A DNA stretch of 32,000 nt from Mucisphaera calidilacus (lineage in GTDB: Bacteria > Planctomycetota > Phycisphaerae > Phycisphaerales > Phycisphaeraceae): assembly GCF_007748075.1 (NCBI RefSeq), contig NZ_CP036280.1:2190001-2222000 (forward strand), given 5' to 3'. A program made the translations under genes and the position numbers. The notes under the pieces were generated by a model. That model was not told the origin of the DNA and searched no databases. It worked only from the letters and a program-made list of their open reading frames with translations. The stretch's first letter is position 1, and each line of letters starts with the position of its first letter. Positions 12,887 to 31,232 of the stretch are shown one piece after another.

Positions 12887-12922
12887 TCGACCACGACCCC
12901 ACACCCGCACGATGACGGCACC

Positions 12923-13684: not shown

Positions 13685-13695
13685 GGAGCACACCC

Positions 13696-15003: not shown

Positions 15004-15023
15004 CGATCGCCTAAACTGACCGG

Positions 15024-17300: not shown

Positions 17301-17302
17301 CC

Positions 17303-17989
17303 GTGCGCACACGCATCAAGATCTGCGGCGTCACACGCACCGAACACGCCCTCGCCGCCGTCGCCGCCGGCGCCGACGCCATCGGACTCGTCTTCGTCGA
17401 ACGATCCCCGCGACACGTCACGCCCGAGCAGGCCCGCGCCATCACCGACGCACTCCCCGCCTTCGTCGACGCCGTCGGCCTCTTCGCCAACCACGACCCC
17501 GCCCTCATCACCCGGACCGCGCACGACGCCAACCTCCGCACCCTCCAGCTCCATGGCGACGAAACCGTCGCCATCCTTGACCAGCTCCCCCCGCTTCCCG
17601 TCACCCGAGCCCTGCCCTTCACCGACGACGCCCCCACCCGACACGCCGACTGGCTCACCCACCCGCGCACCAAGGCAATCCTCTGGGACAGCCCGCCCGA
17701 CAGCGACGGCAACTTCGGCGGCACCGGACACACCCTCCCCTGGCACGCCCTCCGACAACGACTCGACCTGCCCGACGCCGAACAATGGCCCCCGCCCGTC
17801 GTCGCAGGCGGCCTCACACCCGCCAACGTCGCCGACGCCATCCGCACCCTCCGGCCCTACGCCGTCGACGTCTCCTCAGGCGTCGAGTCCTCCCGTGGCA
17901 ACAAGGACATCGCACGCATCACCGCCTTCTGCAACGCCGTCCGCAACGCCGACCGCAACGCCGACCGCAACGCCGACCGCGATCGCTAA
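17303..17989 (+). CDS. trpF: N-(5'-phosphoribosyl)anthranilate isomerase
   Basis: IKICGVTRTEHALAAVAAGADAIGLVF..SPR.V, LQLHGDE, GGTG and AGGLTP.NV are present. GTG start at 17303 lies just after GGAGG (17291-17295) and 2 nt after the helicase stop. The C-terminus is a repetitive NADR tail. Confidence 0.85.
   Translation: MRTRIKICGVTRTEHALAAVAAGADAIGLVFVERSPRHVTPEQARAITDALPAFVDAVGLFANHDPALITRTAHDANLRTLQLHGDETVAILDQLPPLPVTRALPFTDDAPTRHADWLTHPRTKAILWDSPPDSDGNFGGTGHTLPWHALRQRLDLPDAEQWPPPVVAGGLTPANVADAIRTLRPYAVDVSSGVESSRGNKDIARITAFCNAVRNADRNADRNADRDR
17941..17976. repeat. Perfect 12-bp tandem repeat (CCGCAACGCCGA x3) at the 3' end of trpF
   Basis: Three identical 12-mers sit at 17941, 17953 and 17965. 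Degenerate copies flank them (17929-17940 and 17977-17986). The array encodes RNADRNADRNADRDR. Confidence 0.9.
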
Positions 17990-18023
17990 ACTGGCACGCC
18001 CCAACCCACTCCCAGGACCTCCC

Positions 18024-19010
18024 ATGAAACGCGTGCTCTCAGGCATCCAGCCCTCCGGACAACTCCACCTCGGCAACTTCTCCGGCGCCATCCAGCAGTT
18101 CGTCGAACTCCAGGCCGACCACGAGATGTTCATCTTCATCGCCTCCTACCACGCACTCACCTCCGTCCGCGACCCCGAGGTCCTGCGCCAGAACATCACC
18201 CAGGTAGCCACCGACTATATCGCCTTCGGACTCGACCCCGACCTGCCCCACGTCAACCTCTACCGCCAGCAGGACGTCCCCGAGGTCACCGAACTCGCCT
18301 GGCTGCTCGCCTGCGTCTGCCCTAAACACATGATGGACAAGGCCACCAGCTTCAAGGACAAGACCGCCAAGGGCCTCTCCGCCTCCATCGGCCTCTACAC
18401 CTACCCCGTCCTCCAGGCCGCCGACATCCTCTCCGTCGACCCCGACCTCGTGCCCGTCGGCAAAGACCAGGTCCAGCACTGCGAGATCACACGCGACCTC
18501 GCACAGAAGTTCAACCACAACTTCGCCAGCGAAGACAACCCCGTCTTCCGACTACCCGACTACCGCGTCCGCGAGGCCGCCGCCCTCCTCCCCGGAATCG
18601 ACGGCCAGAAAATGAGCAAGTCCTACGACAACACCATCGACCCCTTCATGGACGAAAAACCGCTCCGCAAACGCATCATGAAGATCGTCTCCGACGCCAC
18701 GCCCCTCGAAGATCCCAAAGACCCCGACAACGACACCACCTTCCAGATCTTCCGCGCCATCGCAGGCGAACATGACCCCCGAACCGCCGACCTCGCCACC
18801 CGCTACCGCGCCGGCGGACTCGGCTACGGCCACGCCAAGCAGGAACTCTTCGAACTCGTCCTCGACACCTTCGGGCCCGCACGACAGCGACGCGCCGAAC
18901 TCATGAACGACCCCGGCTACATCAACAAGGTCCTCGCCGACGGCGCCGACAAGGCCCGCGCCAAGGCCCGAAGCGTCCTCGACAAGGCCCGACACGCCGT
19001 CGGCCTCTGA
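18024..19010 (+). CDS. trpS: Tryptophan--tRNA ligase
   Basis: MKRVLSGIQPSGQLHLGNFSGAI (HIGH-type motif), YPVLQAADIL, PVGKDQVQHCEITRDLA and KMSKS are present. Start set at ATG 18024. The 485-aa track ORF is a Pro/Ser/Thr-rich read-through across trpF. Confidence 0.95.
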   Translation: MKRVLSGIQPSGQLHLGNFSGAIQQFVELQADHEMFIFIASYHALTSVRDPEVLRQNITQVATDYIAFGLDPDLPHVNLYRQQDVPEVTELAWLLACVCPKHMMDKATSFKDKTAKGLSASIGLYTYPVLQAADILSVDPDLVPVGKDQVQHCEITRDLAQKFNHNFASEDNPVFRLPDYRVREAAALLPGIDGQKMSKSYDNTIDPFMDEKPLRKRIMKIVSDATPLEDPKDPDNDTTFQIFRAIAGEHDPRTADLATRYRAGGLGYGHAKQELFELVLDTFGPARQRRAELMNDPGYINKVLADGADKARAKARSVLDKARHAVGL

Positions 19011-19045
19011 GAACGCCCGCTACACCCCGCAATCACGATTCACGA

Positions 19046-19540
19046 TCACGCGCTCTTCGACAGCCCGCTCAACGCCGTCTGCTGAGACTGCTCGCTAGGC
19101 GAACCGCCCGACGCGTGCCCGTTGTTCTTCTCGATCAACAGCTGCCACGTCTCACGCTCGTAAGAAATCAGACGAATCGCCTCGTCCACCTTCTCGCCGT
19201 CACGCTTCATGCTCGCGTCAACAAGCAGCTTGAACACGTAGTTGTACAACGCCGTCAGCTTGTCGCAGATCTCCGGCGCCGCATCACGATTCAGGCTCGT
19301 CGACAGCTCCAGCACAATCTTCTGCGCCTTCAACAGGTTCTCGTAGCTCTGCTCGAAATTCTCCGCGTCCAGTCCCGCCTTCGCCTGATGACAGAACCTC
19401 AGGCAGCCGTCATAAAGCATCAGGCGGAGCTCTTCCCGGCTCGCCGTCATCACCTTCGTCCGAAGGTACGGGTTCGGGCCTTGTTGCGGGTTGTTAATCA
19501 CGTCGGCTTCCTCAAAGGGCAAGTACGACCGGAACGACAC
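19046..19540 (-). CDS. fliS: Flagellar export chaperone FliS
   Basis: VMTASREELRLMLYDGCLRFCHQA, FEQSYENLLKAQKIVLELSTSLN and LTALYNYVFKLLVDA form the typical FliS four-helix pattern. It lies immediately downstream of fliD. The start codon at 19540 is GTG, and the N-terminus is somewhat longer than usual. Confidence 0.85.
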   Translation of the reverse strand: MSFRSYLPFEEADVINNPQQGPNPYLRTKVMTASREELRLMLYDGCLRFCHQAKAGLDAENFEQSYENLLKAQKIVLELSTSLNRDAAPEICDKLTALYNYVFKLLVDASMKRDGEKVDEAIRLISYERETWQLLIEKNNGHASGGSPSEQSQQTALSGLSKSA

Positions 19541-19618
19541 ATCCGGTACCTGCCTGATATCGGGACGTCGACACCAACGCCATCAGCGACCAAACACCTG
19601 AGGACCGATAACACCGCA

Positions 19619-22600
19619 TCATGAGTTACTGCTCGTCAACGGCGCAATCGCCTGAATCTGACTCAGCGACGAACTCTGCCCCTGCAACTCCGCGAGCGCA
19701 ATCTCCATCGCAATAAACTCCGCCTCCAGCTTCGCCCGCTCACGCTCCAGATCCTCATCGATGTCCTCGATCCGGTCCTGATTCGCCTCCACCAGCGAGT
19801 TCAGCGTGTCCCCACGCTGCTTCAATGTCCCGTCAAAAGAATTCGTGATCGACTCCAGCCACTCGTCCAGCTGCGCCAGAACACCCTGGTTCAACACCGA
19901 ACGATTCCCCTCGTCATCCTCCACCGTTGTCTTCTTCGTGAACAGATCGATCACACCCGCACGATCCTCGCCCACCTCACGATCAAACCGCGCCGCGTCA
20001 AACGTCAGCACACCACCCTCGCCGATCCGGATACCCACCTGCGACAAGACCTTGTACGTCCCCGTCAGCTGACCCGTCGAAAGCGTCACCCGGTTGTACA
20101 GGTTGTTGCGGATCTGCGAGACCGTCGAGTCGCCCAGCAGCAACCCTCGCTCCTCCGTGTCCGCGTTGTAGCTGTCGTACGAGTCGATCGTGCTCACCGC
20201 CTCGTTGAACGACGTCACGAACGTCTCGATCGTCGACTTCACCTCGTCGAGGTTCTCCGAGATGTTGATCGTCACCGGCGTCTCGCTCGTACCGTTCAGC
20301 GTGATCGTCGTCCCGGGAATCAGATCGTCCAGCGTGTTCGTCGTCGACGTGATCAGCACGTCCTTCGACGAACCCAGGAACACCGCCGCGTCCTGAGCCT
20401 CCGTGATCGTCCGCGCATTCACACCCATCCCGCCGTCATCAAACACAAACCCGCCCGACTCGCCCGCCTCACGCGCCGTGAACACCATCCGGTAGCCGCC
20501 GTTCGGGTTCCCGTCGTTCAGGATCGTCGCCACCGCCGGCCCGCCCGCGTCGTTGATCTTGTTCGCGAGGTCCTGGAGCGTCGTAATCTCCACGATCGCC
20601 GAGCCGTTGATCTCGTTCAGGTCCGGGTCGGTCGAACCCAGAATCCCAAGGTCCGCCGCAAGAGGCGACCCGTTCAACGCCTCGATCCGAAGCGCATCAC
20701 TCCCGCTCGTGAAGTCCACCACATCCAGACCCGACTCCGTGTCGTTGATCTTCACCTCCAGATCACGATTGCCCGTGACCGCCTCCACCTGCGACTCGAT
20801 GAACTCGATCACGTCCGCGATACTCGTCGTGCTCGCATCGCCATCGAAACCCTTGTTGACCGCGTCGAAGTTCAGCTCGATCTCCGTGCCGTCCTTCAGC
20901 GTGATCTTGATGTCGTTCTGGTTCTCGATGTCGCCCAGGCCCTCGCCGTCATTCAACACCGAGATGTCCGTGTCCAGCGTCAGCTTCTCACTCGAGAACG
21001 TGATCCGCGTCTCAAACGAACCATCCAGATCACCGCCCGGCTCGTCCGCCTCCCCCAGCAACCCGAGCGTCCGCGCCGTGCTTGAACCACGCTCCTCGAT
21101 CTTGATCGCCTGAAGCGGAACCGTCCCCGTCGGCACCTTGTCCTCGATCAGGATCCCGTCGCCCGTGTCGTTGATCCGCGCCTCGATCGCCAACCCCTTC
21201 GAGTTGATCTCGTCGATCACGTCGCCGAGCGTCACCTCGTTGCCCTGCGTCAGATCCACCACCGCCGAATCATTCAACGCGTCCGTGATCGTGAACTGGC
21301 CACGCACGATGCCCAGCTTGTCCAGCCGCGTCGCCTCCGAGATGTACTTGAGCTGCAGGTTGCCGCCGTCGACCGACCCGCCCGTGTGCTCGCCCACAAT
21401 CCCCAGCTCCGACGCCAGCATGCCACCCTCCTCGGTCACCGTCAGGCTGCCCGAGCCACCCGAAACGTCCTTCAACTCAATACCGTTGTTCGCGCCATTG
21501 ATCGACGCATACACCCCGATCGACGAGGTCGCCGCATTGATCTGATCCACAAGGTCCGTCACCGACTCAGCGCCCGCCAGGTCAAAGATGACGGTCGCCC
21601 CGAGACCGTTCGTCACGCCGATCTCATCCTCGATCGCCAGGCCGCGACCACCCAGAAGATTGGTGACCAGCTTCGAGCCCATCTCCGCGACCAGCCGGCC
21701 GCCCACGATCTCATCACCCGCCACGTCCCCGACAATCCCCAGGTCCGTCGCCGCGCTGCTGCCCGACGCGTCCGCCACCACGAGGTTCCCGCCCCCGCCC
21801 GTCGTGTCAACGAGCGTCAGGCTCGATCCGTCACGCACCCCGCCGTCCGAAACCTTCGCCGTCACCGCCCCACCCGTCGCCGACGCGATCGCATCCATCA
21901 CATCGCCAAGCGACGTCGCCTCGCCAAGATCCACCGAGTGCGTCGCACCCGAACGATCCGTGATCGTGAAGTCCGTCGAGAACGACGACATCCGGATGCC
22001 GTTCCCGTCGTTGAGATTCGTCAGCACCGTCTCCCGGCCCATGTAGTTGAGCCGCGCCGAGACCAGCTTGCCGGTCGGGTCCGAGGCCGCGCTCGCGTCC
22101 ACACCGCCCGACGCCGAGAGCCCCAGGCTCTCCGCCGCCTCCGACTCCGCCACCGTCAGCGTCCCCGAACCGCCCGAGATATCCGTCAGCGTCAGACCGT
22201 CATCCGTGATCGACGCACGCACCCCTATGCCCGTCGTCGTGTTGATCGCCTCGAGCACGTCCTCGATGTTGACCGCCGTGCTGATGTCGATGTCCGCCGT
22301 CCGCCCCGACTGGTCCGTGATCGTCAGCACGCCACGCGTGACGCCCTCGCCGCCCCGGAGCGCCGACAGCCGCGTCCGCGTCGACAAAGCCGACTCCGCA
22401 CGGTCAAAGCTGATCGAACCCGCGTCCAGAGGCGTGATGTCCTTGTCCGAGAAACCGTCCGTGATCACCTGCTGGCTCCGGACCAGCTGCGACACGCTGA
22501 ACGTGTATGAGCCCGGCACCGCCCCCGTCGACGACGTCGCCGACGCCACCGACTCGTTGCTGCTGCTCGCCGTCGTGCTCCGGAAGACCGTCGAACGCGA

Positions 22601-22795
22601 CAGCGTCGACACACTGCTCTTGACCGACAAGAGCTTCGCGCTCACGTCCTGGTACGCCACCTGCTGCGCCGCCAGCTCCGCGTTGCGGATCTCCAGCTGC
22701 GTCCGAGGGCCCGTCTGCAACTGGATCAGCTGATCCACCAGCGATAAATAATCGATGCCGCTGACAAGACCGACACCTGATGTAATCTGTCCCAT
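19619..22795 (-). CDS. fliD: Flagellar filament cap protein FliD (hook-associated protein 2), unusually large with internal tandem modules
   Basis: The N-terminus MGQITSGVGLVSGIDYLSLVDQLIQLQTGPRTQLEIRNAELAAQQVAYQDVSAKL is a classic FliD_N. The C-terminus has the FliD_C core (AQDAAVFLG...ITSTTNTLDDLIPGTTITL, FVTSFNE, GLLLGDSTV..IRN, LSQVGIRIG..G.LTFD) and a terminal coiled coil. Start placed at ATG 22795, preceded by GAGGTG. Confidence 0.85.
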   Translation of the reverse strand: MGQITSGVGLVSGIDYLSLVDQLIQLQTGPRTQLEIRNAELAAQQVAYQDVSAKLLSVKSSVSTLSRSTVFRSTTASSSNESVASATSSTGAVPGSYTFSVSQLVRSQQVITDGFSDKDITPLDAGSISFDRAESALSTRTRLSALRGGEGVTRGVLTITDQSGRTADIDISTAVNIEDVLEAINTTTGIGVRASITDDGLTLTDISGGSGTLTVAESEAAESLGLSASGGVDASAASDPTGKLVSARLNYMGRETVLTNLNDGNGIRMSSFSTDFTITDRSGATHSVDLGEATSLGDVMDAIASATGGAVTAKVSDGGVRDGSSLTLVDTTGGGGNLVVADASGSSAATDLGIVGDVAGDEIVGGRLVAEMGSKLVTNLLGGRGLAIEDEIGVTNGLGATVIFDLAGAESVTDLVDQINAATSSIGVYASINGANNGIELKDVSGGSGSLTVTEEGGMLASELGIVGEHTGGSVDGGNLQLKYISEATRLDKLGIVRGQFTITDALNDSAVVDLTQGNEVTLGDVIDEINSKGLAIEARINDTGDGILIEDKVPTGTVPLQAIKIEERGSSTARTLGLLGEADEPGGDLDGSFETRITFSSEKLTLDTDISVLNDGEGLGDIENQNDIKITLKDGTEIELNFDAVNKGFDGDASTTSIADVIEFIESQVEAVTGNRDLEVKINDTESGLDVVDFTSGSDALRIEALNGSPLAADLGILGSTDPDLNEINGSAIVEITTLQDLANKINDAGGPAVATILNDGNPNGGYRMVFTAREAGESGGFVFDDGGMGVNARTITEAQDAAVFLGSSKDVLITSTTNTLDDLIPGTTITLNGTSETPVTINISENLDEVKSTIETFVTSFNEAVSTIDSYDSYNADTEERGLLLGDSTVSQIRNNLYNRVTLSTGQLTGTYKVLSQVGIRIGEGGVLTFDAARFDREVGEDRAGVIDLFTKKTTVEDDEGNRSVLNQGVLAQLDEWLESITNSFDGTLKQRGDTLNSLVEANQDRIEDIDEDLERERAKLEAEFIAMEIALAELQGQSSSLSQIQAIAPLTSSNS

Positions 22796-22869
22796 GGCAC
22801 ACCTCACAACGACGCGACAGACCGCGCCACATCTTTAGATCGGGTACCCGGTCAGGACGGCTTGAAGAC

Positions 22870-23802
22870 ATGCCCCACACCACCCTGAACCAAAGCCCGT
22901 CAACCCCTTACCCCAACACTATCGGCTGGATCGCCCTGCTCCTGAGCCTGCTGACGATCCCACAGATCACGCTCGGGCAAAGACTTAAAGAAAGCGACCT
23001 CGGAACCACCCTCTGGCTCGAACTCGACACCGCGCCTTTCCCCCACGAGAGCCGCGCCGAGGGCTACACCCGACGCGACACGACCTACCCCTTCGAGGAG
23101 CACTACAACGACAAGACCGTCCTCGTGTTCACGCCCAAGGGTTATAAACCCCTCAATAGCATTGACTTTCTGATCTACTTCCACGGCCACCGCAACCACG
23201 TCCGCCAGGCCGTCGATGTGTTTCGCCTCCGCGAGCAGCTGGTCGCCTCGGGCCGCCAGCTCGTGCTCGTCTTCCCGCAGGGGCCCTACAACGCCTCCGA
23301 CTCGTCGTGCGGCAAGATGGCCGATCAGGACGGCCTAAAGTTATTACTGAAAGATATTTGCGGTCATTACCCGGTCCCCTTCGGCAGCGACGACCCCGCC
23401 ATCGGCAGGGTTGTTCTCTCGGGGCACTCCGGCGCCTATCTTGGGATTGGGCAGTGCCTTAAGGTCGGCGGGCTCCGTGATCACATCGACGAGGTGCACC
23501 TGCTGGACGCCAGCTACGGCCAGTGGGACGCCTACGTCGGCTGGATGGCCGAGGACCCTGCGAGCCACCGCTTCTTCTCGATCTTCACCGACCACCTCGC
23601 TGCTGCTAACGTTGGCATGATCACAGAGTTACAGGCACGCGGCCTGACCGCCACACTCGTCGGCGACCGCTTCGAAACCCTGGGTGGCGGGCCGTGGCCC
23701 CAGCGGGTGTTCGTGCACAGCCGGCTGAGCGACCACAACCAGGCCGTGGCCTGGCTCGAACGCTCGCTGCGCGCCAGAAAGCCAGTTGCAGCAGAGGATT
23801 AG
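22870..23802 (+). CDS. Exported alpha/beta-hydrolase-like protein (putative esterase), function unknown
   Basis: N-terminal hydrophobic signal/anchor (IGWIALLLSLLTIPQITLG). There is an oxyanion-like FLIYFHGH, a nucleophile-elbow-like VVLSGHSGAY (GxSxG = GHSGA), and later HLLDAS and SDHNQ. Its composition differs from both flanks. Its stop overlaps the convergent UDG stop by 4 nt. Confidence 0.7.
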   Translation: MPHTTLNQSPSTPYPNTIGWIALLLSLLTIPQITLGQRLKESDLGTTLWLELDTAPFPHESRAEGYTRRDTTYPFEEHYNDKTVLVFTPKGYKPLNSIDFLIYFHGHRNHVRQAVDVFRLREQLVASGRQLVLVFPQGPYNASDSSCGKMADQDGLKLLLKDICGHYPVPFGSDDPAIGRVVLSGHSGAYLGIGQCLKVGGLRDHIDEVHLLDASYGQWDAYVGWMAEDPASHRFFSIFTDHLAAANVGMITELQARGLTATLVGDRFETLGGGPWPQRVFVHSRLSDHNQAVAWLERSLRARKPVAAED

Positions 23803-24683
23803 GGCTTGGGTGGTGTCTTGCCCAACCGCTCGAGGACGGCGCAGAGGTCGGACCAGACCTTTTTGCGGTTGTCGACGGTGTAGGAGCGGAGCAGGTAGGC
23901 GGGGTGGAAGGTCGGCATCACTGGAACTTCTGGATTGGCATCGACATACGAATGCCAGGTTCCCCGGATCCGTGTGATGCCTTCCCTGGTATTGAGGATG
24001 AGTTTGGCCGCGGGGCCGCCAAGGGTCACGATGGCCTTGGGCCGGATGGTTTCGATCTGGCGACGGAGGTAGCCGGAGCAGGCGTCGACCTCGTCGGCGG
24101 CGGGGTTGCGGTTGCCGGGTGGGCGGCACTTGACGACGTTGGCGATATAAACCTCGCTGCGGGAAAGACCCATAGCAACGATCTGTTTTTCGAGGAGCTG
24201 TCCGGCGCGGCCGACGAAGGGCACGCCCTGCTCGTCCTCGTTCTGGCCGGGGCCCTCGCCGATGAACATGATGTCGGCGTCGGGGTCGCCTTCGCCGAAG
24301 ACGGTCTGCGTACGACCGGCGGCAAGGGCGCAGCGCACACAGGCGGCCACCTCAGACCTTAAGTCGTTGAGAACACTGAGTTTGCCGTCAGAATCGAGCT
24401 CTGGCGCGGATTTCTGATTTTGGTCCATTTTCGCTCGTTTTGAGCCGTTTTCGTCCAAATCGGGTCCGTTTTCGTCCGTTTTGGGTCGTTTTGGCTCGTT
24501 TTCGTGTCGTTTTGTGCGCGCCGAAACCACGTTTGTGCGCGCCTCGGGTGTCGGGTTTGTGCGCGCCGTTTCCGGGCGTTTCGGGGGGAGGTTGGTGGTG
24601 GTTCCGAGGGGGACGGCATCGATGTCGAGGAGCGCATCGGCGTGGAGGTGCTGGCGAAGGCGTCGCAGGTCGCGTGGGTCCAT
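23799..24683 (-). CDS. Uracil-DNA glycosylase, family 4 (Fe-S type), with N-terminal extension and low-complexity linker
   Basis: The C-terminal roughly 190 aa reads C.RC.L...RTQTVFGEGDPDADIMFIGEGPGQNEDEQGVPFVGRAGQLL, VYIANVVKCRPPGNRNP, C..YL..QI, IVTLGG.AA and PTFHPAYLLR. The N-terminal helix DLRRLRQHLHADALLDIDAVPL resembles the leader seen in long-form family-4 UDGs (from memory). An alternative start at ATG 24428 would give a 209-aa core-only protein. Confidence 0.85.
   Translation of the reverse strand: MDPRDLRRLRQHLHADALLDIDAVPLGTTTNLPPKRPETARTNPTPEARTNVVSARTKRHENEPKRPKTDENGPDLDENGSKRAKMDQNQKSAPELDSDGKLSVLNDLRSEVAACVRCALAAGRTQTVFGEGDPDADIMFIGEGPGQNEDEQGVPFVGRAGQLLEKQIVAMGLSRSEVYIANVVKCRPPGNRNPAADEVDACSGYLRRQIETIRPKAIVTLGGPAAKLILNTREGITRIRGTWHSYVDANPEVPVMPTFHPAYLLRSYTVDNRKKVWSDLCAVLERLGKTPPKP
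24436..24567. repeat. Helically phased CGTTTT tracts followed by three copies of TTTGTGCGCGCC
   Basis: CGTTTT starts at 24436, 24446, 24467, 24477, 24487, 24497 and 24508, giving spacings of 10, 21, 10, 10, 10 and 11. TTTGTGCGCGCC occurs at 24511-24522, 24532-24543 and 24556-24567. The array lies inside the UDG linker-coding region. Confidence 0.85.
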
Positions 24684-24839
24684 GGCTTCAGGATACGGTC
24701 TGGCGCGGCTGTAGGGGTTGTGCGGGATGAAGGTCCGAGAAGTCTGGCGGCGGGTGCGGGACGGGTCGGGTGTCCGATAGACGATCGTGCCGACGGAGCC
24801 GCGTGTGGTTCCGCAACCCAGTCAGAAGGAGTCTGATCC

Positions 24840-25346
24840 ATGTCATCTGATGCCAGTACCCAGAACCGCACCGTGCTCGGCGCTGATTGCAGCATTGCCG
24901 GCGACCTCTCGATTGACAACGACGCGACGCTGCTCGGCCAGTTCGAGGGCGAGCTGCGTGTGAGCCGTTCGCTTGAGATCGGCGGCTCGGCGCGAGCGCG
25001 CGGCACGATCATGGCCGGTGCCGTGATGATGTCGGGCGAGGCGGAGGCGGTGATCATCGCTGAGCAGGTGGTTCACCTGCTGCCCGGCTGCCGCGTGAAG
25101 GGCCGTATTTTCGCTCCGCAGCTTCAGGTCGAGGAGGGCGCGATGTTCGACGGCGAGCTGTGCGTGAGCCCGAACGCGATCGAGGCGGCGGAGTCGCACA
25201 TGAAGAGTTCGCAGGCTTCGGCGCGTCCGTCGATGCACGAGAGTGCTCCGGGCGGCCATGACGTCCAGACCGTGCCGAGCGCGGTGGCGACGCTTCTGGA
25301 GCGTCGGCGTCAGCAGCAGTCGGCGAGTGAAGCCCAGGCCGCCTGA
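24840..25346 (+). CDS. Bactofilin (polymer-forming cytoskeletal protein, DUF583 beta-helix)
   Basis: AAGGAG Shine-Dalgarno 8 nt upstream. Bactofilin repeat pattern: TVLGADCSIAGDLSIDNDATLLGQFEGELRVSRSLEIGGSARARGTIMAGAVMMSGEAEAVIIAEQVVHLLPGCRVKGRIFAPQLQVEEGAMFDGEL. The C-terminal tail looks disordered. Confidence 0.8.
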   Translation: MSSDASTQNRTVLGADCSIAGDLSIDNDATLLGQFEGELRVSRSLEIGGSARARGTIMAGAVMMSGEAEAVIIAEQVVHLLPGCRVKGRIFAPQLQVEEGAMFDGELCVSPNAIEAAESHMKSSQASARPSMHESAPGGHDVQTVPSAVATLLERRRQQQSASEAQAA

Positions 25347-25379
25347 GCGTGCTGCTCACAACCGGTCAGGGCATGACCC

Positions 25380-25937
25380 ATGCCGATCAAACCCCCGAGC
25401 CTGGGTTTTCTGACGACACGCAAGCCGGCCCCGCGGTCGCAGCGTTGGGTGAGTTGCCCGACCTGCGGGCGCGGGTTCGAGGTTTCGTCGCGGGCGATTT
25501 CCGCGACGTGCCCGACGTGCACGCGTCACTTCGTCTTTGACGACGTCTCGATCCGCAAGGACACGAAGCGTGACGTCTCGACGATGGGTCATGTTCACGT
25601 GGAGCCGGGCAGCGGGATGATCGGTCGTGTGGTGTGCGGCTCGCTGACGATCGAGGGTCGTTACGACGGCGACGCGACGGTGTTCGGGGCGGCGTTGCTG
25701 GTGGAGGATGCGGACTGCCGGGGGGTGGTCCGGGCGCGGAGCCTGAGCGTGCCGGCGGGGACGACGTTCTACGGCAAGGCTCACATCGGTTCGATGCGGG
25801 ACGACGATCCCGAGACGTTTGGCGTGTTGCCCGGGGGTTCGGTCGAGCCTCATCAGCGTGAGGCGATCCGGACGGTGATCCCGACGCGTCTGAGGCGGAC
25901 GAAGATTCTGAAGGCTGTGGGGGCGGGGGATTCGTGA
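25380..25937 (+). CDS. Zinc-ribbon / bactofilin-like fusion protein
   Basis: The N-terminus has CPTC-x14-CPTC (WVSCPTCGRGFEVSSRAISATCPTCTRHF). It is followed by bactofilin-like beta-helix windings (MGHVHVEPGSGMIGRVVCGSLTIEGRYDGDATVFGAALLVEDADCRGVVRARSLSVPAGTTFYGKAHIG). It starts 33 nt downstream of the first bactofilin. Confidence 0.7.
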   Translation: MPIKPPSLGFLTTRKPAPRSQRWVSCPTCGRGFEVSSRAISATCPTCTRHFVFDDVSIRKDTKRDVSTMGHVHVEPGSGMIGRVVCGSLTIEGRYDGDATVFGAALLVEDADCRGVVRARSLSVPAGTTFYGKAHIGSMRDDDPETFGVLPGGSVEPHQREAIRTVIPTRLRRTKILKAVGAGDS

Positions 25938-26037
25938 GGGGTTCACACGGCCGCCTTGGAGATTCGGTTGCGGTGTGCCACCCGGAGGGGCGGGGTCCAG
26001 AGTTCGCGATTTTGGTTCGCTGAGGGTTGGGTTCTCG

Positions 26038-26331
26038 TTACGGCGAATTGAGGGTGACCCAGGGGCGGAGACGTTCGAGGGTTTTGGGGCCGATGCGTGG
26101 GACGTCGTCGAGTTGGGTGATGGTGGTAAAGGGGCCGTGGCGTTCGCGGTGCTCGATGATGTTTTCGCTGAGTTTGGGTCCGATGCCCGGGAGGAGCTGG
26201 AGGTCGGCGGCGGGGGCGGCGTTGACGTCGATGCGCAGGCCGGCGGGCCGGGGCGCGATGGTGTTGATAGGGATGGGGCAGAGGAGCGCGGCGAGGATCG
26301 GGAGGATCAGCAGCGGGCAATATTTCCACAT
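26038..26331 (-). CDS. comEA: ComEA-family helix-hairpin-helix DNA-binding protein (exported)
   Basis: Signal-like N-terminus MWKYCPLLILPILAALLC, then IDVNAAPAADLQLLPGIGPKLSENIIEHRERHGPFTTITQLDDVPRIGPKTLERLRPWV, a tandem HhH ComEA signature. Confidence 0.8.
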   Translation of the reverse strand: MWKYCPLLILPILAALLCPIPINTIAPRPAGLRIDVNAAPAADLQLLPGIGPKLSENIIEHRERHGPFTTITQLDDVPRIGPKTLERLRPWVTLNSP

Positions 26332-26346
26332 GTGATCATTGTATCA

Positions 26347-27867
26347 TCAGGCCGGCTGCTGGGGCTGGAGGTTGAAGCGTTTGCGGAGTTCGAGGAGTCG
26401 TGCGGCGGCGGGTTTGGGTTCGAGGTTCTCGGCGAGGAGTCCTGCGAGGGGCAGTGACATGTCGGGGTGGTCGACGACTTCTTTCCAGAGGACGGTTTCG
26501 ACGAAGGGTCGGCTGGCGGCGATCTGTGTGACGGCTTCGAGCCAGTGCCCCTGCACGGTGGCGTTCCAGGGTCGTCGCCAGATGCCGCACTCGGAGTCGG
26601 CGGGGAGGTCGGAGTCGGTGTCGTTGATCATCTCGGAGGTGACGGGTGAGGAGGGCACGCCGATGACGACCTGGAGGGGTTTGCCGAGGGCACCGTAGCG
26701 GTCGATGAGGGTGGCGAGCTGCATGAGGTCGCGGCAGAACTGTCCGGGCTGTGCCTGGCCCATGAGGATCTGGAGGCTGAATCCGTCGAAGACGTTTCCG
26801 GCCTGGACGACGAGGTCGGCGTAGAGGGCTGGGGGGATGGATCGGACGTTGGCGGCGAAGTACTCGCCGAAGGGCTGTCGGAGGCCGATGAGGGCTCGTG
26901 AGACGGGCTGGATGCGTTTGACGAGTCTTGTGGCGGTCCGGGTGATGTCCATGACCTGGTCGAAGGAGAAGGGGAAGTTCTGGTTGACGTGGAGCCCGGA
27001 GACGACGTTCCAGACGGCGACGCGGTCTTTGTAGCGTGTGACGACGCGTTCGACGTGGTCGTAGATGAGGTCGCGGATGGTCTCGAAGTCGTGTTCCCAG
27101 ATGTAGACCCAGTCGGGGACGTGTCCGGTCTCGAAGCTGATGAGGGGTCCGGCGGCGAGGGGGATGTTTCGTTCGGAGGCCCAGTCGACCCAGCGGTCCA
27201 TGTCGTCCCAGCGGTTGCCGTCTTCTTCGGGAGCGAGGGCGTTCCAGGGGCACTGGAGTGCGACGAGTGAGCCGACGCCGGCGAGGATTTTCATGGCGTG
27301 GTCGGAGGCGTGGGCGAGGGGGACGCCGATGCCCAGGGCGTGTGGCGGGAGTTTTCCGGTCTGGATGCGTCGTTCGAGGAGGAGTTCGGCGTGGGCGAGT
27401 GCGAGTTCTTCGCTGGCGTCGATGGCGGCGATGAGCGCGTTGTGGGCGTGGTGGTCGGCGGCGGCGGGGTCGTCGTGGACGACGCAGAGCGCCTCGATGA
27501 AGGCCTGTCGTGCCTCTCGGGCGCGTCGGTGGACGGGGTGGTCCTGTGGCAGGTCGAACATGGCCCACTCTTCGAGGAGGGCGTAGAGGTTCATGAGTCG
27601 GTGGCGTGCGAGCTCGATGCTGAGCCGGTAGGGGTGGTCGCGGTCGGGCAGGAGGCAGGTCTGGAGGGTGAGTTGTCCGAGTTCGCCGACGGGATAGAGG
27701 AGAGCGACGGCGGTGGCGACGAGGTCGCGTCGGTCGACGGTGAGGACGCCTTCTTCGAGGGAGATAGTGGCTCTGAGGGGGTGGCTGTCGGGGCCGATGG
27801 CGTGGGCGTTGCGGGTGATCCATTCCTGCCCGAAGGTGTCAGAGAGGGGCAGATAGAACCTGAGCAT
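26347..27867 (-). CDS. TIM-barrel glycoside-hydrolase-like protein (GH10/xylanase-like), possibly non-catalytic
   Basis: 506-aa ORF in the NNC dialect expected for a minus-strand gene in the right half. Weak GH10-like blocks are present: WDDMDRWVDWASERNIPLAAGPL, RVAVWNVVSGLH (position of the WDVVNE acid/base motif), FDGFSLQILMG and GKPLQVVIGVPS (position of the ITELD nucleophile motif). The family call rests on motif resemblance only. The overlapping 495-aa ORF in another frame is a Pro/Arg shadow. Confidence 0.55.
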   Translation of the reverse strand: MLRFYLPLSDTFGQEWITRNAHAIGPDSHPLRATISLEEGVLTVDRRDLVATAVALLYPVGELGQLTLQTCLLPDRDHPYRLSIELARHRLMNLYALLEEWAMFDLPQDHPVHRRAREARQAFIEALCVVHDDPAAADHHAHNALIAAIDASEELALAHAELLLERRIQTGKLPPHALGIGVPLAHASDHAMKILAGVGSLVALQCPWNALAPEEDGNRWDDMDRWVDWASERNIPLAAGPLISFETGHVPDWVYIWEHDFETIRDLIYDHVERVVTRYKDRVAVWNVVSGLHVNQNFPFSFDQVMDITRTATRLVKRIQPVSRALIGLRQPFGEYFAANVRSIPPALYADLVVQAGNVFDGFSLQILMGQAQPGQFCRDLMQLATLIDRYGALGKPLQVVIGVPSSPVTSEMINDTDSDLPADSECGIWRRPWNATVQGHWLEAVTQIAASRPFVETVLWKEVVDHPDMSLPLAGLLAENLEPKPAAARLLELRKRFNLQPQQPA

Positions 27868-27990
27868 GGGTGGATCCTGAGGGGGGTTCCGTGTCTTATG
27901 AGATGATGACCTGAGGTTGGCCGGGGGGCAAGCTGGAATGTTAAGCGTTGTCGTCAGCGTGACCTGCGTGAGGGGAGGGGGTGGGAGGTG

Positions 27991-28019
27991 TTGACGGTGA
28001 TAGCGGGCGTCTTTACAGT
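27991..28019 (+). promoter_or_regulatory. Candidate sigma70-type promoter for the HEAT-repeat gene
   Basis: TTGACG (27991-27996), 17-nt spacer, TACAGT (28014-28019). It lies 37 nt upstream of ATG 28056, with GGAG at 28042-28045. Pattern match only. Confidence 0.35.
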
Positions 28020-28055
28020 GCTGCGTGTCCGATTCCCCTCTGGAGTAGGCCGGTG

Positions 28056-30224
28056 ATGACGGTTTTCAGTGATCCGACGCGTCGCGTGCTGGCGGCCCTG
28101 GTTGTGTTGGTTAGTGTTCTGCCGGGAGCTGCGATGGCACAGCGTGCCGCGACGCTCTGGGACGACTTCAACCATTACTTGTTGATCGCACGCCCCGAGC
28201 TTGCAGCGGGCGCGGGCGAGGCTTTGCTCGAGGCGGTTGGGGACGACGGTCCTCAGTTGCTGGAGGTGGTTGAGTCCTCGGACTTCGCCGACTTCGAGAC
28301 GGCGTTGATCCGTGCGACGAAGGTCGCCGCGGTGGAGCCTGTGGCGAAGCGTCTTCTGGCGAAGATCCAGGAGGCTCAGGTAGCGGTTGCCCGTGATCCG
28401 GAGCGGATCCGAGCGAACATCGAGCGGCTGGCGGTGAACAAGCGTGCGTTCATCAACGCGGTTGAGCGTCTTCGCGGCGCGGGCCAGTTTGCGGCTCCGT
28501 TGCTTCTCGAGACTCTTCAGAACCCGAAGCAGGCGAGTCTGCACCCGTTTGTTCAGGAGGCGATGGTCTCGATCGGCCGTTCGCTGGTTTACCCGCTCTC
28601 GGAGGCGTTGCCCCAGTTGGAGCCGGTTCAGCAGCAGCAGATTTCTCAGGTGCTGATGCGGATTGGTTATCCGCAGGCGCTGCCTTATCTGCAGGAGGCG
28701 ATCGAGGATCCTTCGACGGACCCGACGGCGTTGACTTACCTGGTGGCGGCTCGTGACGCGTTGGTAGCCACGGTGAATGTTCCTGCTGAGACGCGGGCGT
28801 CGGTGCTTTACGTGGCGGCGGGCGAGGCTCAGTACGTCGCGGGGACGAACAAGACGGAGATTCCGGGTCTGGGCTCTCAGAGCGTGGACAGCACGATCTG
28901 GGAGTACACGCCTGAGACGGGTCTGGTGGCGATCAAGGTTCCGGACGCGATCTTCGCGGATGCGTTGGCGCTTCGTTCGGCGGTGAAGTCGATGAAGCTG
29001 GACCCGGAGACGGATTCGGCGATGACGCTTTTCCTGCGTTCGAACCTGCGTCGTGAGAACCGTCTGCCGGAGGGCGCTGTGGACCCGAGTTATGCGACGG
29101 ACATGCGTCCTGCGTCGTATTACGCGATGCTGGCCGGCCCTGAGCGTCTGCACGAGGTTCTGGACCGTGCCCTGGTGGATGAGGACCCGGTTCTGGCGTT
29201 GGACGCGATCGAGGCGCTGCGTAAGACCACGGGCGCGAACGCTCTGGTAGCGGGCACGGGCGGTCGCCAGCCGTTGCTGCGTGCGTTGAGCTTCCCGGAT
29301 CGTCGTGTTCGTTTCCGTGCTGCGGAGGCGTTGGCTGCGGCCCGTCCGGTTGAGACGTTTGACGAGGCGGATCGCGTGGTCCCGACGCTGGGCGAGGCGG
29401 TTCGCCAGTCGGACACGATGTACGCGGTGGTGGTTGCGGATGACAACGCGAACCTCAACACGGTGCTGGGCATCGTGGGTGAGCTGGGTTACGAGGCGTT
29501 CGGCGGTTTGTCGCGTGAGGACGTTGAGGAGCAGATCGCTTTGCTGCCCGGCGTGGACCTTGTGGTTCTGGCGTTGGGTGAGAGTGACGTCGAGGGGTTC
29601 TTCCTGGACACGAAGGGTGATCGTCGGCTGGGCGGGACGCCGGTGCTGGCGCTGGTCTCGGCGGCGGAGCAGATCACGCTGACGGAGACCTTCCGAGCCG
29701 AGGAGCGTTTTGCCAGCGCGGTGATGACCGAGAGTGTCGGCGCCATGCAGGCGGCGGTGGCGTCGGTGACGGAGCGTTACGCGGGGTATCGGATCGAGGG
29801 TGGCGAGGCGGAGGCGTTTGCCCTGACGGCGTTGGACCTTCTCGAGCGGATCGGTTCGACCGACCCTGTCTACTTCGCGGGTGATGCGGAGGTGGCGATG
29901 ATCCAGGCGTTGACCGACGAGCGTGAGAGCGTGGTGGTGGCGGCGGGTGCGGCGTTGGAGAATCTGCCTTCTGCGACGGCTCAGATCGCGTTGGCGGATG
30001 CGGCGCTTCGTGCGTCGGGTGAGGTTCAGCTGTCGCTGCTGGCGAGCCTGGCGGAGTCGGCGCGTTACAACGGCAACAAGCTCGATGATCGCCTGATCCG
30101 AGGCGTGCGTGAGCTGGTGGTGTCGAGTGAGGGCGCGTTGGCCTTAGAGGCGGCCCGAGCCCACGGCGCATTGACGCTGCCCACGGAAAGCGGCGTCGAG
30201 CAGGTTCTGCGTTACACCCGCTGA
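28056..30224 (+). CDS. Exported HEAT/PBS-lyase-type repeat protein with an embedded receiver-like alpha/beta module
   Basis: Start placed at ATG 28056, giving the signal peptide MTVFSDPTRRVLAALVVLVSVLPGAAMA|Q. HEAT-like repeats are present (FAAPLLLETLQNPK...VQEAMVSIG, ALPYLQEAIEDP, DEDPVLALDAIEALRK, LSFPDRRVRFRAAEALAAA, DERESVVVAAGAALENL). The track start at 27981 would lie upstream of the candidate promoter. Confidence 0.75.
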   Translation: MTVFSDPTRRVLAALVVLVSVLPGAAMAQRAATLWDDFNHYLLIARPELAAGAGEALLEAVGDDGPQLLEVVESSDFADFETALIRATKVAAVEPVAKRLLAKIQEAQVAVARDPERIRANIERLAVNKRAFINAVERLRGAGQFAAPLLLETLQNPKQASLHPFVQEAMVSIGRSLVYPLSEALPQLEPVQQQQISQVLMRIGYPQALPYLQEAIEDPSTDPTALTYLVAARDALVATVNVPAETRASVLYVAAGEAQYVAGTNKTEIPGLGSQSVDSTIWEYTPETGLVAIKVPDAIFADALALRSAVKSMKLDPETDSAMTLFLRSNLRRENRLPEGAVDPSYATDMRPASYYAMLAGPERLHEVLDRALVDEDPVLALDAIEALRKTTGANALVAGTGGRQPLLRALSFPDRRVRFRAAEALAAARPVETFDEADRVVPTLGEAVRQSDTMYAVVVADDNANLNTVLGIVGELGYEAFGGLSREDVEEQIALLPGVDLVVLALGESDVEGFFLDTKGDRRLGGTPVLALVSAAEQITLTETFRAEERFASAVMTESVGAMQAAVASVTERYAGYRIEGGEAEAFALTALDLLERIGSTDPVYFAGDAEVAMIQALTDERESVVVAAGAALENLPSATAQIALADAALRASGEVQLSLLASLAESARYNGNKLDDRLIRGVRELVVSSEGALALEAARAHGALTLPTESGVEQVLRYTR

Positions 30225-30254
30225 ATCAGTCAGAGCATTTTTGGCCCTTCAAGA

Positions 30255-30283
30255 CCGTCTCGGCAACGAGGCGGTTTTTCTTT
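30255..30283 (+). terminator. Rho-independent terminator after the HEAT-repeat gene
   Basis: Stem CCGTCTCG (30255-30262) / CGAGGCGG (30267-30274, one G-U pair), GCAA loop, then TTTTTCTTT. Confidence 0.65.
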
Positions 30284-30326
30284 GGCTGTGCTCAGGGTGA
30301 GTGAGCCCGGAGTCGCTCGATTTGGA

Positions 30327-31232
30327 TCAGGCGAGGAGTTCGGCGAGGAGGCCCTTCTGGGCGTGGAGTCGGTTGTGGGCCTGGGGGATGACGCGGCTGC
30401 GTGGGCCGTCGAAGACCTCGGCGGTGATCTCTTCGCCACGGTAGGCGGGCATGCAGTGGAGGACGATGGCGTGGTCGTTCGCGGCGGCGAGCATGTCGTC
30501 GTCGACGCGGTAGCCGGCGAAGGCCTTCTTGCGGGCTTCTTTCTCGTCTTCCTGCCCCATAGAGGTGAAGGTGTCGGTGTAGACGGCGTCGGCGCCGGCG
30601 ACGGCTTCGGCGGGGTCGGTGGTGAGGGTGGGTTTGAGGCCGAGTTGGGCCAGTTCGTCGACGAAGGCGGGGTCGAAGCCGTAGCCCTCGGGGCTGGCGA
30701 GTCGGAAGCCCATGCCCAGCTTGGCGCAGGCGGCGGCGAAGCTGCGTGCGACGTTGTTGCCGTCGCCGACGTAGGCGATGTTGCGGCCGGTGAGGTCTTC
30801 GCCGAACTCGTCGGAGAGGGTGAGGGCGTCGGCGAGTGCCTGTGCGGGGTGGGCGCGTTCGCTGAGCATGTTGACGACGGGTCTGCCGCTGAACTCGGCC
30901 ATGGCCTCGAGGTCGGCGTGTGCGAAGACACGTGCGCCGATGATGTCGACCATGCCGCCGAGGACGCGTGCGACGTCCTGGACGGGCTCGCGTTTGCCGA
31001 GACCGACTTCGTGCTGACCGAGGACCATGGGGTGTCCGCCGAGGTCGAGGACGGCCTGCTCGAAGCTGACGCGTGTGCGTAGGCTGGGCTTCTGGAAGAG
31101 CAGGGCCATGGTGAGGCCGTTGAGGGGGGTGCCGGTGGCCTGGCCGCGTTGACCGCGGAGGGCGCGTGCCCGGCTGAGCATGGCCTTGACGGTATCGGCG
31201 GGTGTCTGAGCGATGGTGAGGAAGTGTTTCAT
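30327..31232 (-). CDS. argF: Ornithine carbamoyltransferase
   Basis: FQKPSLRTRVSFE (SxRTR), HPAQALAD (HPxQ), YVGDGNNVA, FTSMGQE and HCMPAYRGEE (HCLP-type) are present. Its start overlaps the argB stop by 4 nt. Confidence 0.95.
   Translation of the reverse strand: MKHFLTIAQTPADTVKAMLSRARALRGQRGQATGTPLNGLTMALLFQKPSLRTRVSFEQAVLDLGGHPMVLGQHEVGLGKREPVQDVARVLGGMVDIIGARVFAHADLEAMAEFSGRPVVNMLSERAHPAQALADALTLSDEFGEDLTGRNIAYVGDGNNVARSFAAACAKLGMGFRLASPEGYGFDPAFVDELAQLGLKPTLTTDPAEAVAGADAVYTDTFTSMGQEDEKEARKKAFAGYRVDDDMLAAANDHAIVLHCMPAYRGEEITAEVFDGPRSRVIPQAHNRLHAQKGLLAELLA

Follow-up and report, generated by a model that had tools for sequence, protein, structure and literature searches.

Does the abrupt reversal of strand composition at a pair of convergent genes in the chromosome of Mucisphaera calidilacus Pan265 (CP036280) mark a replication origin, or does it have another cause? 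The window, which is the whole 32 kb stretch of this chromosome that was analysed, contains a single sign change of GC skew in 1-kb bins. The skew is -0.14 to -0.42 in every one of the 23 bins on the left, up to 23 kb, -0.04 in the bin at 23-24 kb, and +0.16 to +0.35 in each of the eight bins on the right, beyond 24 kb. The initial annotation had named a windowed skew lacking a sign change as a possible refutation, and the 1-kb bins do show the change. On the + strand, the counts are G 5456 / C 9866 and A 4922 / T 3436 left of 23,680, and G 3338 / C 2102 and A 1180 / T 1700 right of it; with the split placed at 23,800, chi-square = 1079 (p ~1e-236). The reversal is confirmed as genuine and very sharp, and it separates two arms, both identified from skew bins and four-fold sites:

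1..23680, no strand: left arm, + strand C+A-rich; lagging-strand sequence if the flip is an origin
23832..32000, no strand: right arm, + strand G+T-rich; leading-strand sequence if the flip is an origin

At four-fold sites, the + strand composition is C 0.74, G 0.10, A 0.125 and T 0.03 on the left and G 0.67, C 0.13, T 0.17 and A 0.03 on the right, which corresponds to a G:C imbalance of ~5-11 to 1 and a GC skew of 0.68-0.84. Left genes have a + strand GC3 skew of -0.28 to -0.77, whether they are coded on the + or the - strand, and right genes have +0.14 to +0.69, whichever their coding strand. G and T shift jointly at the switch (keto skew), and the G+C content of this G+C-rich genome (64%) is equal on the two sides. 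The per-gene GC3 signs therefore bear out the earlier description of a C+A-rich left and a G+T-rich right side regardless of gene strand. The shadow ORFs named in the initial annotation exist, the near-parity stretch at 23.3-23.8 kb is present for bulk bases, and five of six spot counts were exact on recounting, the exception being 23761-23820 (G23/C14, not G23/C15). The AT-skew flip described there needs one refinement. The bulk AT-skew change point lies at ~19-20 kb, displaced because fliD and fliS mask the switch, whereas the third-position A/T bias does reverse, from +0.83 in fliD to -0.74 in bacA.

The switch was located by maximum likelihood on third codon positions, using a model with a gene-strand term. 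The change point is at 23,681, with a 2-lnL support interval of 23,672-23,693 and a 5-lnL interval of 23,663-23,831. Within the window, the bulk cumulative GC skew reaches its lowest point at 23,680, and the keto skew at 23,401. The binned GC3 skew is -0.29 to -0.52 along hypX (-0.11 in its last bin) and +0.33 to +0.67 from 23,784 onward. The switch can be placed to within ~150 nt, at the convergent junction of hypX and a uracil-DNA glycosylase (UDG) gene, which sharpens the earlier handover at 23.3-23.8 kb to 23.66-23.83 kb, on the gene junction:

22870..23802, + strand: hypX, conserved secreted hypothetical protein of 310 aa (QDU71948); last left-type gene, GC3 skew -0.34
23663..23831, no strand: change-point support interval from third codon positions, best estimate 23,681
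23799..23802, no strand: 4-nt overlap of the convergent stop codons (...gat tag ggc...); the hypX stop is TAG, and the UDG stop is tta, read as TAA on the - strand
23799..24683, - strand: family-4 UDG, 294 aa (PF03167, TIGR00758); first right-type gene

As first described, the flip thus falls on convergent genes whose stop codons overlap by 4 nt, and there is no intergenic DNA at all at this point. Non-coding DNA is first met 0.93 kb to the left, as a stretch of 62 bp, and 0.88 kb to the right, as one of 156 bp. HypX is 100% identical to an M. calidilacus protein and has 140 homologues, mostly in Planctomycetota; no Pfam or NCBIfam family matched it. UDG has a + strand GC3 skew of +0.46, and because it is uniformly right-type, the switch lies to its left. 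The protein consists of a conserved 25-aa N-terminal motif followed by a low-complexity linker, and the N-terminus (MDPR..LRQ.L..D.LL..DAVP) is kept in two other genomes, those of a second species, Mucisphaera sp. (L013), and of a third syntenic genome (L014, also L020).

Several further elements lie around the junction:

22808..22869, no strand: fliD-hypX divergent intergenic region, 62 bp, with conserved TAGATCGGGT and GCTTGAA blocks (aligned with L013 and L014)
24353..24472, no strand: most A+T-rich 120 nt of the window (52% A+T) by A+T scan, within the coding region of the UDG linker
24418..24515, + strand: phased CGTTTT-type T-tract repeats with a period of ~10 nt (repeat search; start-to-start spacing 41, 10, 10)
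24511..24567, + strand: three perfect TTTGTGCGCGCC copies spaced 21 and 24 nt (3 matches vs 0.18 expected)
24684..24839, no strand: UDG-bacA divergent intergenic region, 156 bp, with invariant blocks GAAGGTCCGAGAAGT and GGGTGTCCGATA in the three-genome alignment
24840..25346, + strand: bactofilin gene bacA (QDU71950; PF04519), weak GC3 skew of +0.14

The nearest origin-like sequence is the A+T-rich stretch of phased T-tracts and TGTGCGC repeats, 0.55-0.95 kb to the right of the switch, where the AT skew reaches -0.72 (24,401-24,600). It is on the wrong side, since UDG is already fully right-type. We considered this stretch as a hidden intergenic origin located 5´ of a shorter, 209-aa UDG, and rejected it because the alignment puts the UDG start at 24,683, with a conserved N-terminus; the T-tract and TTTGTGCGCGCC repeats therefore sit in the UDG linker. 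The TTTGTGCGCGCC copies belong to a TGTGCGC motif cluster that is found near the 5´ end of UDG in three genomes. The clusters of L013 and L014 are differently placed relative to the UDG start codon, and the TTTGTGCGCGCC stretch is partly inside a 12-aa insertion specific to the M. calidilacus UDG. A similar T-tract periodicity was observed in L013 at 11,520-11,600. A+T-rich patches within hypX were rejected as an origin element because they are not conserved in relatives, and an apparent 1-kb gap at 30.2-31.2 kb is argF rather than non-coding DNA. The fliD-hypX intergenic region is probably the fliD promoter, and it may resemble a sigma-28 promoter. The synonymous sites of bacA are unusually conserved, with a four-fold identity of 0.53 and 0.57 vs 0.35 and 0.34 expected and a DNA identity of 82% across the three genomes.

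The GC skew switches from negative to positive, as at a canonical oriC; the positive-to-negative switch of a terminus was not observed. The other features of a canonical DnaA-dependent oriC, which are a DnaA-box cluster, a spacer with an unwinding element and linkage to dnaA, dnaN or parS, were not found at this locus. The consensus TTATCCACA, which may not be the DnaA box of this phylum, gave three matches with ≤1 mismatch in 32 kb vs 1.7 expected, none of them ≤2 kb from the flip. The relaxed box TTNTCCACA gave 11 matches in the window, which are scattered, as they are in L013 and L014. A tblastn search with E. coli DnaA detected no dnaA in the window, which reaches from -24 to +8 kb around the switch, or at any of the related loci fetched, no replication-initiator or DNA polymerase beta-clamp family was detected in the Pfam scan of the named window genes, and a scan for parS found none. 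From -10 to +20 kb around the flip of Mucisphaera sp., dnaA, other usual origin-flanking genes and parS were likewise not found. A non-coding spacer with an A+T-rich unwinding element is absent at the switch, where the stops overlap, and the A+T-richest 120 nt lies 0.55-0.67 kb to the right, in coding DNA. The initial annotation was correct in reporting neither a DnaA-box cluster nor dnaA nor an AT-rich intergenic spacer here. Around the junction of both Mucisphaera genomes, 9-mer enrichment returned only G+C-rich coding words, and neither an Rfam nor a tRNA scan of the window gave a match. For dif, the best matches (19-20/28 in the window, L013 and L017) to a degenerate consensus, from which planctomycete dif may diverge, are at background level. 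The scan for a dif palindrome core found nothing near the flip, and no dif-like site was found in the window or the related loci.

The order uvrD-trpF-trpS-fliS-fliD-hypX-UDG-bacA-bacB is identical in L013 and L014, which indicates that the adjacency across the junction is ancestral and not a breakpoint. In L013 and L014, hypX and UDG have the same convergent arrangement, there with a 2-nt gap between them. Mucisphaera sp. carries the flip at the same junction (10,891/10,894; ~2.141 Mb on the 3.25-Mb contig ERZ26867466), with a change point at 10,918 (support 10,870-11,032), and its skew persists from -10 kb to +20 kb around the flip. The four-fold identity between the window and Mucisphaera sp. 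is at chance level (uvrD 0.78 vs 0.74 expected; UDG 0.45 vs 0.45). Since these sites are saturated and both species have the flip, it is conserved at mutational equilibrium, and the bias is at work in each of the two lineages today. The third syntenic genome (L014/L020, contig JAVKDK010000026.1) keeps the gene order, but there hypX is already right-type; the left flank consists of ~17 kb of near-zero skew with right-type DNA past it, so this locus is not a clean origin-type flip. Beyond 2.5-3.5 kb, the right flanks of the two Mucisphaera species no longer match, and the distance to tig is 1112 protein ids in one of them but 8.5 kb in the other. In Mucisphaera sp., the C-rich strand carries rpsA, whereas tig and clpX are coded on the G-rich one; a tally from the gene tables of the window and of Mucisphaera sp. 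places ~48% of the coding DNA on the G-rich strand. More distant hypX homologues (L015 and L016) are not syntenic, and the tig loci of D3-23 and of a JGI contig have weak skew and are uninformative.

We consider it probable that the two replication forks of the M. calidilacus chromosome move apart from the flip, which would make it the replication origin region. Drawn from the 32-kb window and the loci of relatives, this reading is supported but unproven. The G+T-rich strand would be the leading strand by analogy with other bacteria, whose leading strands commonly have a surplus of G and T (PMC3174206), and the sign would hence be that of an origin; a joint change of G and T is what cytosine deamination on the lagging-strand template is expected to cause. 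Breakpoints are clustered close to the locus, as is common around replication landmarks, and the lack of a dif-like site also speaks for an origin. Against it stand the absence of every canonical hallmark (DnaA-box cluster, dnaA, parS, spacer, shared junction motif), the convergence of both flip genes, which would place their transcription head-on to the forks, the local gene orientation, which gives no support, and the L014/L020 locus with no clean flip. In the mechanism that we propose, the lineage would have an exceptionally strong replication-linked mutation bias. The strand that is copied discontinuously as template, which has the leading-strand sequence, would turn G+T-rich, and the fork direction would thereby be recorded at nearly every synonymous site. 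The forks would diverge on the overlapping stops of the convergent hypX and family-4 UDG genes, and we infer that the site is the sole origin of the replicon. That replication in Mucisphaera starts without non-coding DNA or a DnaA-box cluster, on or beside overlapping convergent 3´ ends, and hence by a non-canonical route, is a further proposal that we regard as rather unlikely; such a route may use a cryptic initiator site within coding sequence, or transcription- or R-loop-assisted opening.

The forks could instead meet here, at a replication terminus with reversed skew polarity and a C+A-rich leading strand. The convergent flip genes would then be co-oriented with the incoming forks, rpsA near the flip of Mucisphaera sp. 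would be co-directional, and the missing oriC hallmarks and nearby dnaA would be in keeping with such a site, as would the labile flip position in L014/L020, since termini shift more easily than origins. However, a G+T excess of the leading strand is the general bacterial rule (PMC3174206), the joint G+T enrichment fits deamination, and neither the window nor the related loci have a dif-like site. In Poriferisphaera corsica (CP036425.1), which belongs to the same family and comes from the same sequencing project, the skew flips with the opposite sign at 51% of the record. A canonical terminus lying across from the record start would give this picture, and the flip agrees with normal polarity provided that the record begins at the origin; it hints that the polarity is normal in the family. 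Taken with this evidence, a terminus is improbable.

We give equally little, or slightly less, credence to the idea that forks diverge at several points, of which the flip would be only one, a supplementary or secondary initiation site (e.g. from an integrated element) rather than the main origin. The lack of canonical oriC features and of dnaA would suit it, as would the rank of hypX, at least the 1113th of ~2856 proteins in the record (a lower bound from protein accession numbers), which is far from dnaA if the record starts at dnaA, unless hypX is near the record end. However, the flanking genes are ordinary housekeeping and flagellar genes, and no integrase, Rep or plasmid genes are among those of the window. 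The skew keeps its full strength for at least 24 kb on the left and at least 20 kb on the right, so the departing forks replicate long stretches every generation. Moreover, multiple active origins are, to our knowledge, not known in bacterial chromosomes.

A scar of a large inversion or translocation, joining segments of opposite inherited skew, is very improbable. In favour of it, the composition changes abruptly and precisely where one gene gives way to the next, rearrangements have happened a few kb away, and pseudo-shift points caused by inversions are known (PMC3269016). However, the alignment that would reveal a synteny breakpoint at ~23.3-23.8 kb shows the fliD-hypX-UDG-bacA-bacB order to be identical in L013 and L014, so the gene order at the junction is conserved in three genomes. 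The same flip also occurs in a species with saturated synonymous sites, where any inherited skew would have been lost or brought into line with the local fork direction, and independent assemblies concur, which excludes misassembly. The initial annotation had left the choice between an unusual origin and a rearrangement scar; the first is upheld by polarity, extent and genus-level conservation, and the second is largely refuted by the intact synteny and the flip common to the saturated congener. A gene-strand, transcription or codon-usage effect, or a compositional island unrelated to replication, has a negligible probability: the gene strand too changes at the flip (+ to -), coding-strand third positions have a baseline C-over-G preference of ~0.1-0.2, and gene strand wholly explains the apparent flip at the UDG 3´ end of a distant relative (L001, a Planctomycetota MAG with the closest UDG match in GTDB genomes), which was rejected for this reason, but in the window the per-gene GC3 table refutes a transcription- or codon-driven asymmetry, as genes of both strands have the same + strand sign on each side with magnitudes of 0.3-0.8, the change-point model already carries a gene-strand term, and the G+C content is unchanged across the flip.

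The flip is therefore read as a persistent fork-divergence point, most likely the replication origin. Phycisphaerae already have an unusual cell cycle, with binary fission in the absence of FtsZ, and our literature search found no paper on a replication origin or GC skew in this class. If the forks truly diverge on spacer-less, DnaA-box-free coding DNA, the interval at 23.66-23.83 kb of the window provides an exact coordinate for testing a non-canonical bacterial origin, and the replication-linked mutation bias of the same lineage would rank among the strongest seen in bacteria. The extreme bias makes Mucisphaera genomes suitable for studying what sets replication-linked mutational asymmetry, and changes of fork direction can be read from sequence at ~100-nt resolution.

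E. coli oriC, located between mnmG (gidA) and mioC, and Caulobacter Cori are chromosomal origins that do not adjoin dnaA. They resemble the Mucisphaera locus in an origin-type cumulative GC-skew minimum, in having no dnaA in the immediate neighbourhood and in unrelated housekeeping flanks. Both are non-coding spacers of at least 250 bp with a DnaA-box cluster and an A+T-rich unwinding element, whereas the Mucisphaera switch has neither a spacer nor a DnaA-box cluster. Constitutive stable DNA replication (cSDR), which is driven by R-loops at oriK sites in E. coli rnhA mutants, is a backup pathway and not a normal origin. It may offer a mechanistic analogy, in initiating without a recognisable DnaA-box cluster, at convergent overlapping transcription; for Mucisphaera, R-loops or DnaA independence would be hypothetical. 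The GC-skew pseudo-shift points that arise from inversions or horizontally acquired DNA (PMC3269016) are similar in their local, abrupt sign change at a gene boundary, but here the synteny is intact, species of saturated divergence share the flip, and a strong skew takes the place of a weak one. Parallels in composition are Borrelia burgdorferi and Lawsonia intracellularis (PMC2671203), in which replication strand bias dominates codon usage: as in Mucisphaera, a strand-specific mutational bias overrides gene strand, sets third-position composition and changes sign at the origin. In a survey of RefSeq genomes, bulk skews reach only up to ~+/-0.4 (bioRxiv 10.1101/808410). Compared with Borrelia and Lawsonia, the amplitude in Mucisphaera is larger, with a four-fold-site GC skew of 0.68-0.84 in a G+C-rich genome.

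The M. calidilacus genome comprises 3.49 Mb with 63.9% G+C and is free of plasmids (PMC8882080). The product of the conserved hypothetical gene hypX is 100% identical to an M. calidilacus protein, and four window proteins bear consecutive GenBank ids (QDU71930-QDU71950) that ascend along the + strand, which assigns the window to the Pan265 chromosome CP036280. Third-position G+C together with Pfam/NCBIfam matches reveals an ordinary chromosomal gene set that uses both strands:

floA; two GTPases including obg; coaX; secretin
glycosyltransferase; deoxyhypusine synthase; kdsB; uvrD/pcrA; trpF; trpS
on the - strand: fliS
19,619-22,807, - strand: fliD
22,870-23,802, + strand: hypX, conserved hypothetical
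23,799-24,683, - strand: UDG, family-4 uracil-DNA glycosylase
+ strand: two bactofilins (bacA and bacB)
on the - strand: HHH_3 protein
on the - strand: GH10-like protein
+ strand: HEAT-repeat protein
on the - strand: argF and argB

The flip of the + strand from C+A-rich (left-type) to G+T-rich (right-type), described in the initial annotation as negative to positive, is borne out by 1-kb bins, in which the GC skew lies between -0.14 and -0.42 in 23 of 23 left of the switch and between +0.16 and +0.35 in 8 of 8 right of it. The left side has G 5456 / C 9866 and the right side G 3338 / C 2102; a chi-square test with the sides divided at 23,800 gives 1079 (p ~1e-236). Of six recounted spot counts, five match exactly and one differs by a single C. 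The bias is independent of gene strand, as had been claimed: the + strand third-position GC skew is -0.28 to -0.77 in left genes on either strand and +0.14 to +0.69 in right genes, and the baseline preference of coding strands for C over G is small (about 0.1-0.2). The + strand composition at four-fold degenerate sites is C 0.74 / G 0.10 / A 0.125 / T 0.03 left of the switch; to its right, these sites hold G 0.67 / C 0.13 / T 0.17 / A 0.03. This gives the window a GC4 skew of -0.76/+0.68, compared with -0.84/+0.75 for a second Mucisphaera species (Mucisphaera sp.; locus L013, extended by L017); in both genomes G outnumbers C by ~5-11 to 1 at such sites of the presumed leading strand.

Bulk bases place the handover at 23.3-23.8 kb, the same interval as in the initial annotation, and the near parity of this zone is largely due to first and second codon positions. 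The third-position skew stays at -0.29 to -0.52 through hypX, is -0.11 over its last 40 codons and jumps to +0.33 to +0.67 from 23,784 rightward. A likelihood change-point model of third positions, in which gene strand is allowed for, puts the switch at 23,681 (5-lnL support 23,663-23,831). The convergent stops do overlap by 4 nt (TAG of hypX at 23,800-23,802; - strand TAA of UDG at 23,799-23,801), leaving the switch without any non-coding DNA. If the switch were placed in either flanking intergenic region, UDG or hypX would deviate by 0.5-0.7 from its neighbours' values in both Mucisphaera genomes. The skew values of hypX and UDG are somewhat damped compared with genes farther out, and the transition may be blurred over about +/-1 kb, centred on the hypX/UDG junction.

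The polarity is that of an origin, as first proposed: G and T are enriched together, in keeping with the general bacterial rule that G+T enrichment with a negative-to-positive sign marks the origin (PMC3174206). We consider it likely that the flip is a persistent point of fork divergence, most likely the chromosomal replication origin of Mucisphaera. A terminus with reversed skew polarity keeps a small probability, because the orientation of local genes is uninformative: coding DNA is divided about equally between the strands, and Mucisphaera sp. has tig and clpX on the G-rich and rpsA on the C-rich strand. Such a terminus is at odds with the sign and the joint G+T enrichment, and no dif-like site was found in the window or the related loci. 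Weak evidence against it also comes from Poriferisphaera corsica, which belongs to the same family and sequencing project as M. calidilacus. In this genome (CP036425.1, 2,187,496-2,208,968) a positive skew gives way to a strongly negative one ~5-6 kb upstream of ApbA-tig-clpX, and the tig locus, at 2.19-2.21 Mb, lies at ~51% of the 4.29-Mb record. This flip resembles a normal terminus opposite the record start, which weakly supports a normal skew polarity in the family if the record starts at the origin. The tig cluster of P. corsica is on the C-rich strand, those of Mucisphaera sp. and of loci L018/L019 on the G-rich one.

The origin reading was compared with the scar of a large inversion or translocation, the other possibility in the initial annotation. 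The order uvrD-trpF-trpS-fliS-fliD-hypX-UDG-bacA-bacB is kept in Mucisphaera sp., whose locus is on a 3.25-Mb contig, and in a Phycisphaeraceae MAG (L014, extended by L020). The skew of Mucisphaera sp. exceeds that of the window (third-position +/-0.8-0.9), flips at the hypX/UDG junction too (change point 10,918; support 10,870-11,032; junction 10,891/10,894) and remains right-type over the next 20 kb, which include tig, clpX, aroC, rpsA and purQ. Four-fold sites of window and L013 orthologues agree no more often than if each set had been drawn independently from its own composition (identity 0.78 versus 0.74 expected for uvrD, 0.42 versus 0.38 for hypX and 0.45 versus 0.45 for UDG), which indicates that each lineage is at its own mutational equilibrium. 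A flip shared at the same junction must then mark a boundary acting at present. A scar is rejected on the strength of that shared flip at saturation and of the unbroken synteny in both relatives. Misassembly is rejected because independent assemblies agree.

The MAG is strongly right-type from hypX rightward. In its left flank from metH to fliD (~17 kb; L014 1-10,000 and L020 3,400-19,600; GCA_040222295.1, JAVKDK010000026.1), the third-position skew is near zero or mixed, and beyond this segment the DNA is right-type again (uppP, a 208-aa hypothetical gene and an ADH-family gene); a clean origin-type flip is therefore absent at the locus there. The fork direction across the segment may have changed fairly recently, and no simple rearrangement model accounts for all the details. 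The two Mucisphaera species are separated by a large rearrangement, whose breakpoint lies ~2.5-3.5 kb to the right of the flip, immediately beyond the HHH_3 gene (window right of 26,343; L013 right of 14,818). The distance between tig and the flip is 8.5 kb in Mucisphaera sp. versus 1112 protein ids in M. calidilacus (QDU70836 versus QDU71948). Breakpoints often cluster near replication landmarks, and those close to the flip are consistent with, but not proof of, such a landmark.

None of the three defining features of a canonical oriC that were tested was found, and the switch locus is therefore not classed as one. The reported absence of a DnaA-box cluster holds: TTATCCACA at <=1 mismatch occurs three times in 32 kb versus 1.7 expected, none near the flip, and matches to the relaxed box TTNTCCACA are scattered in the window, L013 and L014. 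No dnaA was found either: tblastn with E. coli DnaA (an approximate query, whose conserved AAA+ core should still suffice for a match) gave no match in the window or in any of the related loci covered. No parS was found. The divergent fliD-hypX spacer (22,808-22,869; 62 bp) contains the conserved blocks TAGATCGGGT and GCTTGAA, which we take to resemble a fliD promoter, akin to a sigma-28 flagellar promoter. The divergent UDG-bacA spacer (24,684-24,839; 156 bp) contains the invariant blocks GAAGGTCCGAGAAGT and GGGTGTCCGATA upstream of bacA. Synonymous sites of bacA itself (24,840-25,346) are conserved well above expectation (four-fold identity 0.53 and 0.57 versus 0.35 and 0.34). The gene has a DNA identity of 82% among the three otherwise saturated genomes and a weakened strand skew. 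Two 30-mers within hypX, 23,142-23,171 and 23,337-23,366, rank among the most A+T-rich in the window; they are made of rare A/T-ending codons (CTA, TTA, TTA, AAA, GAT, ATT) and show no conservation in L013 or L014.

The sole origin-like sequence lies 0.55-0.95 kb right of the switch, within the low-complexity linker of UDG, and has three components:

24,353-24,472: most A+T-rich 120 nt of the window
24,418-24,515: T-tracts of CGTTTT type, phased ~10 nt, coinciding with the most A+T-rich 120 nt
24,511-24,567: three perfect TTTGTGCGCGCC repeats

All three genomes have a uniformly right-type UDG, which places the fork switch left of this stretch; we therefore do not propose it as the origin. A comparable periodic T-tract pattern is present at L013 11,520-11,600. 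The true start of UDG is 24,683, as set by a conserved N-terminal motif. Compared with both relatives, the M. calidilacus enzyme has a 12-aa linker insertion (24,511-24,560, residues about 42-60) that arose from the tandem TTTGTGCGCGCC repeats and reads as ARTN repeats. A TGTGCGC(GC) cluster lies near the UDG 5' end in all three genomes (window 24,333-24,567; L013 11,740-11,793; L014 11,603-11,693), with copies ~21-24 nt apart and a differing offset from the start codon. Two genomes have it within the linker coding sequence, whereas in the remaining one it precedes the start codon; this hints at a DNA-level element, a putative binding site.

The unusual origin suggested by the initial annotation is thus supported, as the most likely reading only, by the polarity, the same-junction flip in Mucisphaera sp. 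and the lack of canonical oriC features. The locus is best described as an origin-type switch with a possibly non-canonical initiation site. Replication forks would diverge persistently at the hypX/UDG junction as the presumed chromosomal origin of Mucisphaera, and the mutation bias linked to replication would write their direction into the sequence. The unusual strength of this bias is what makes the switch resolvable to ~150 nt. Bulk skews in a survey of RefSeq genomes reach only about +/-0.4 (bioRxiv 10.1101/808410), and that of M. calidilacus, at 0.3-0.4, is at or near the top of this range.
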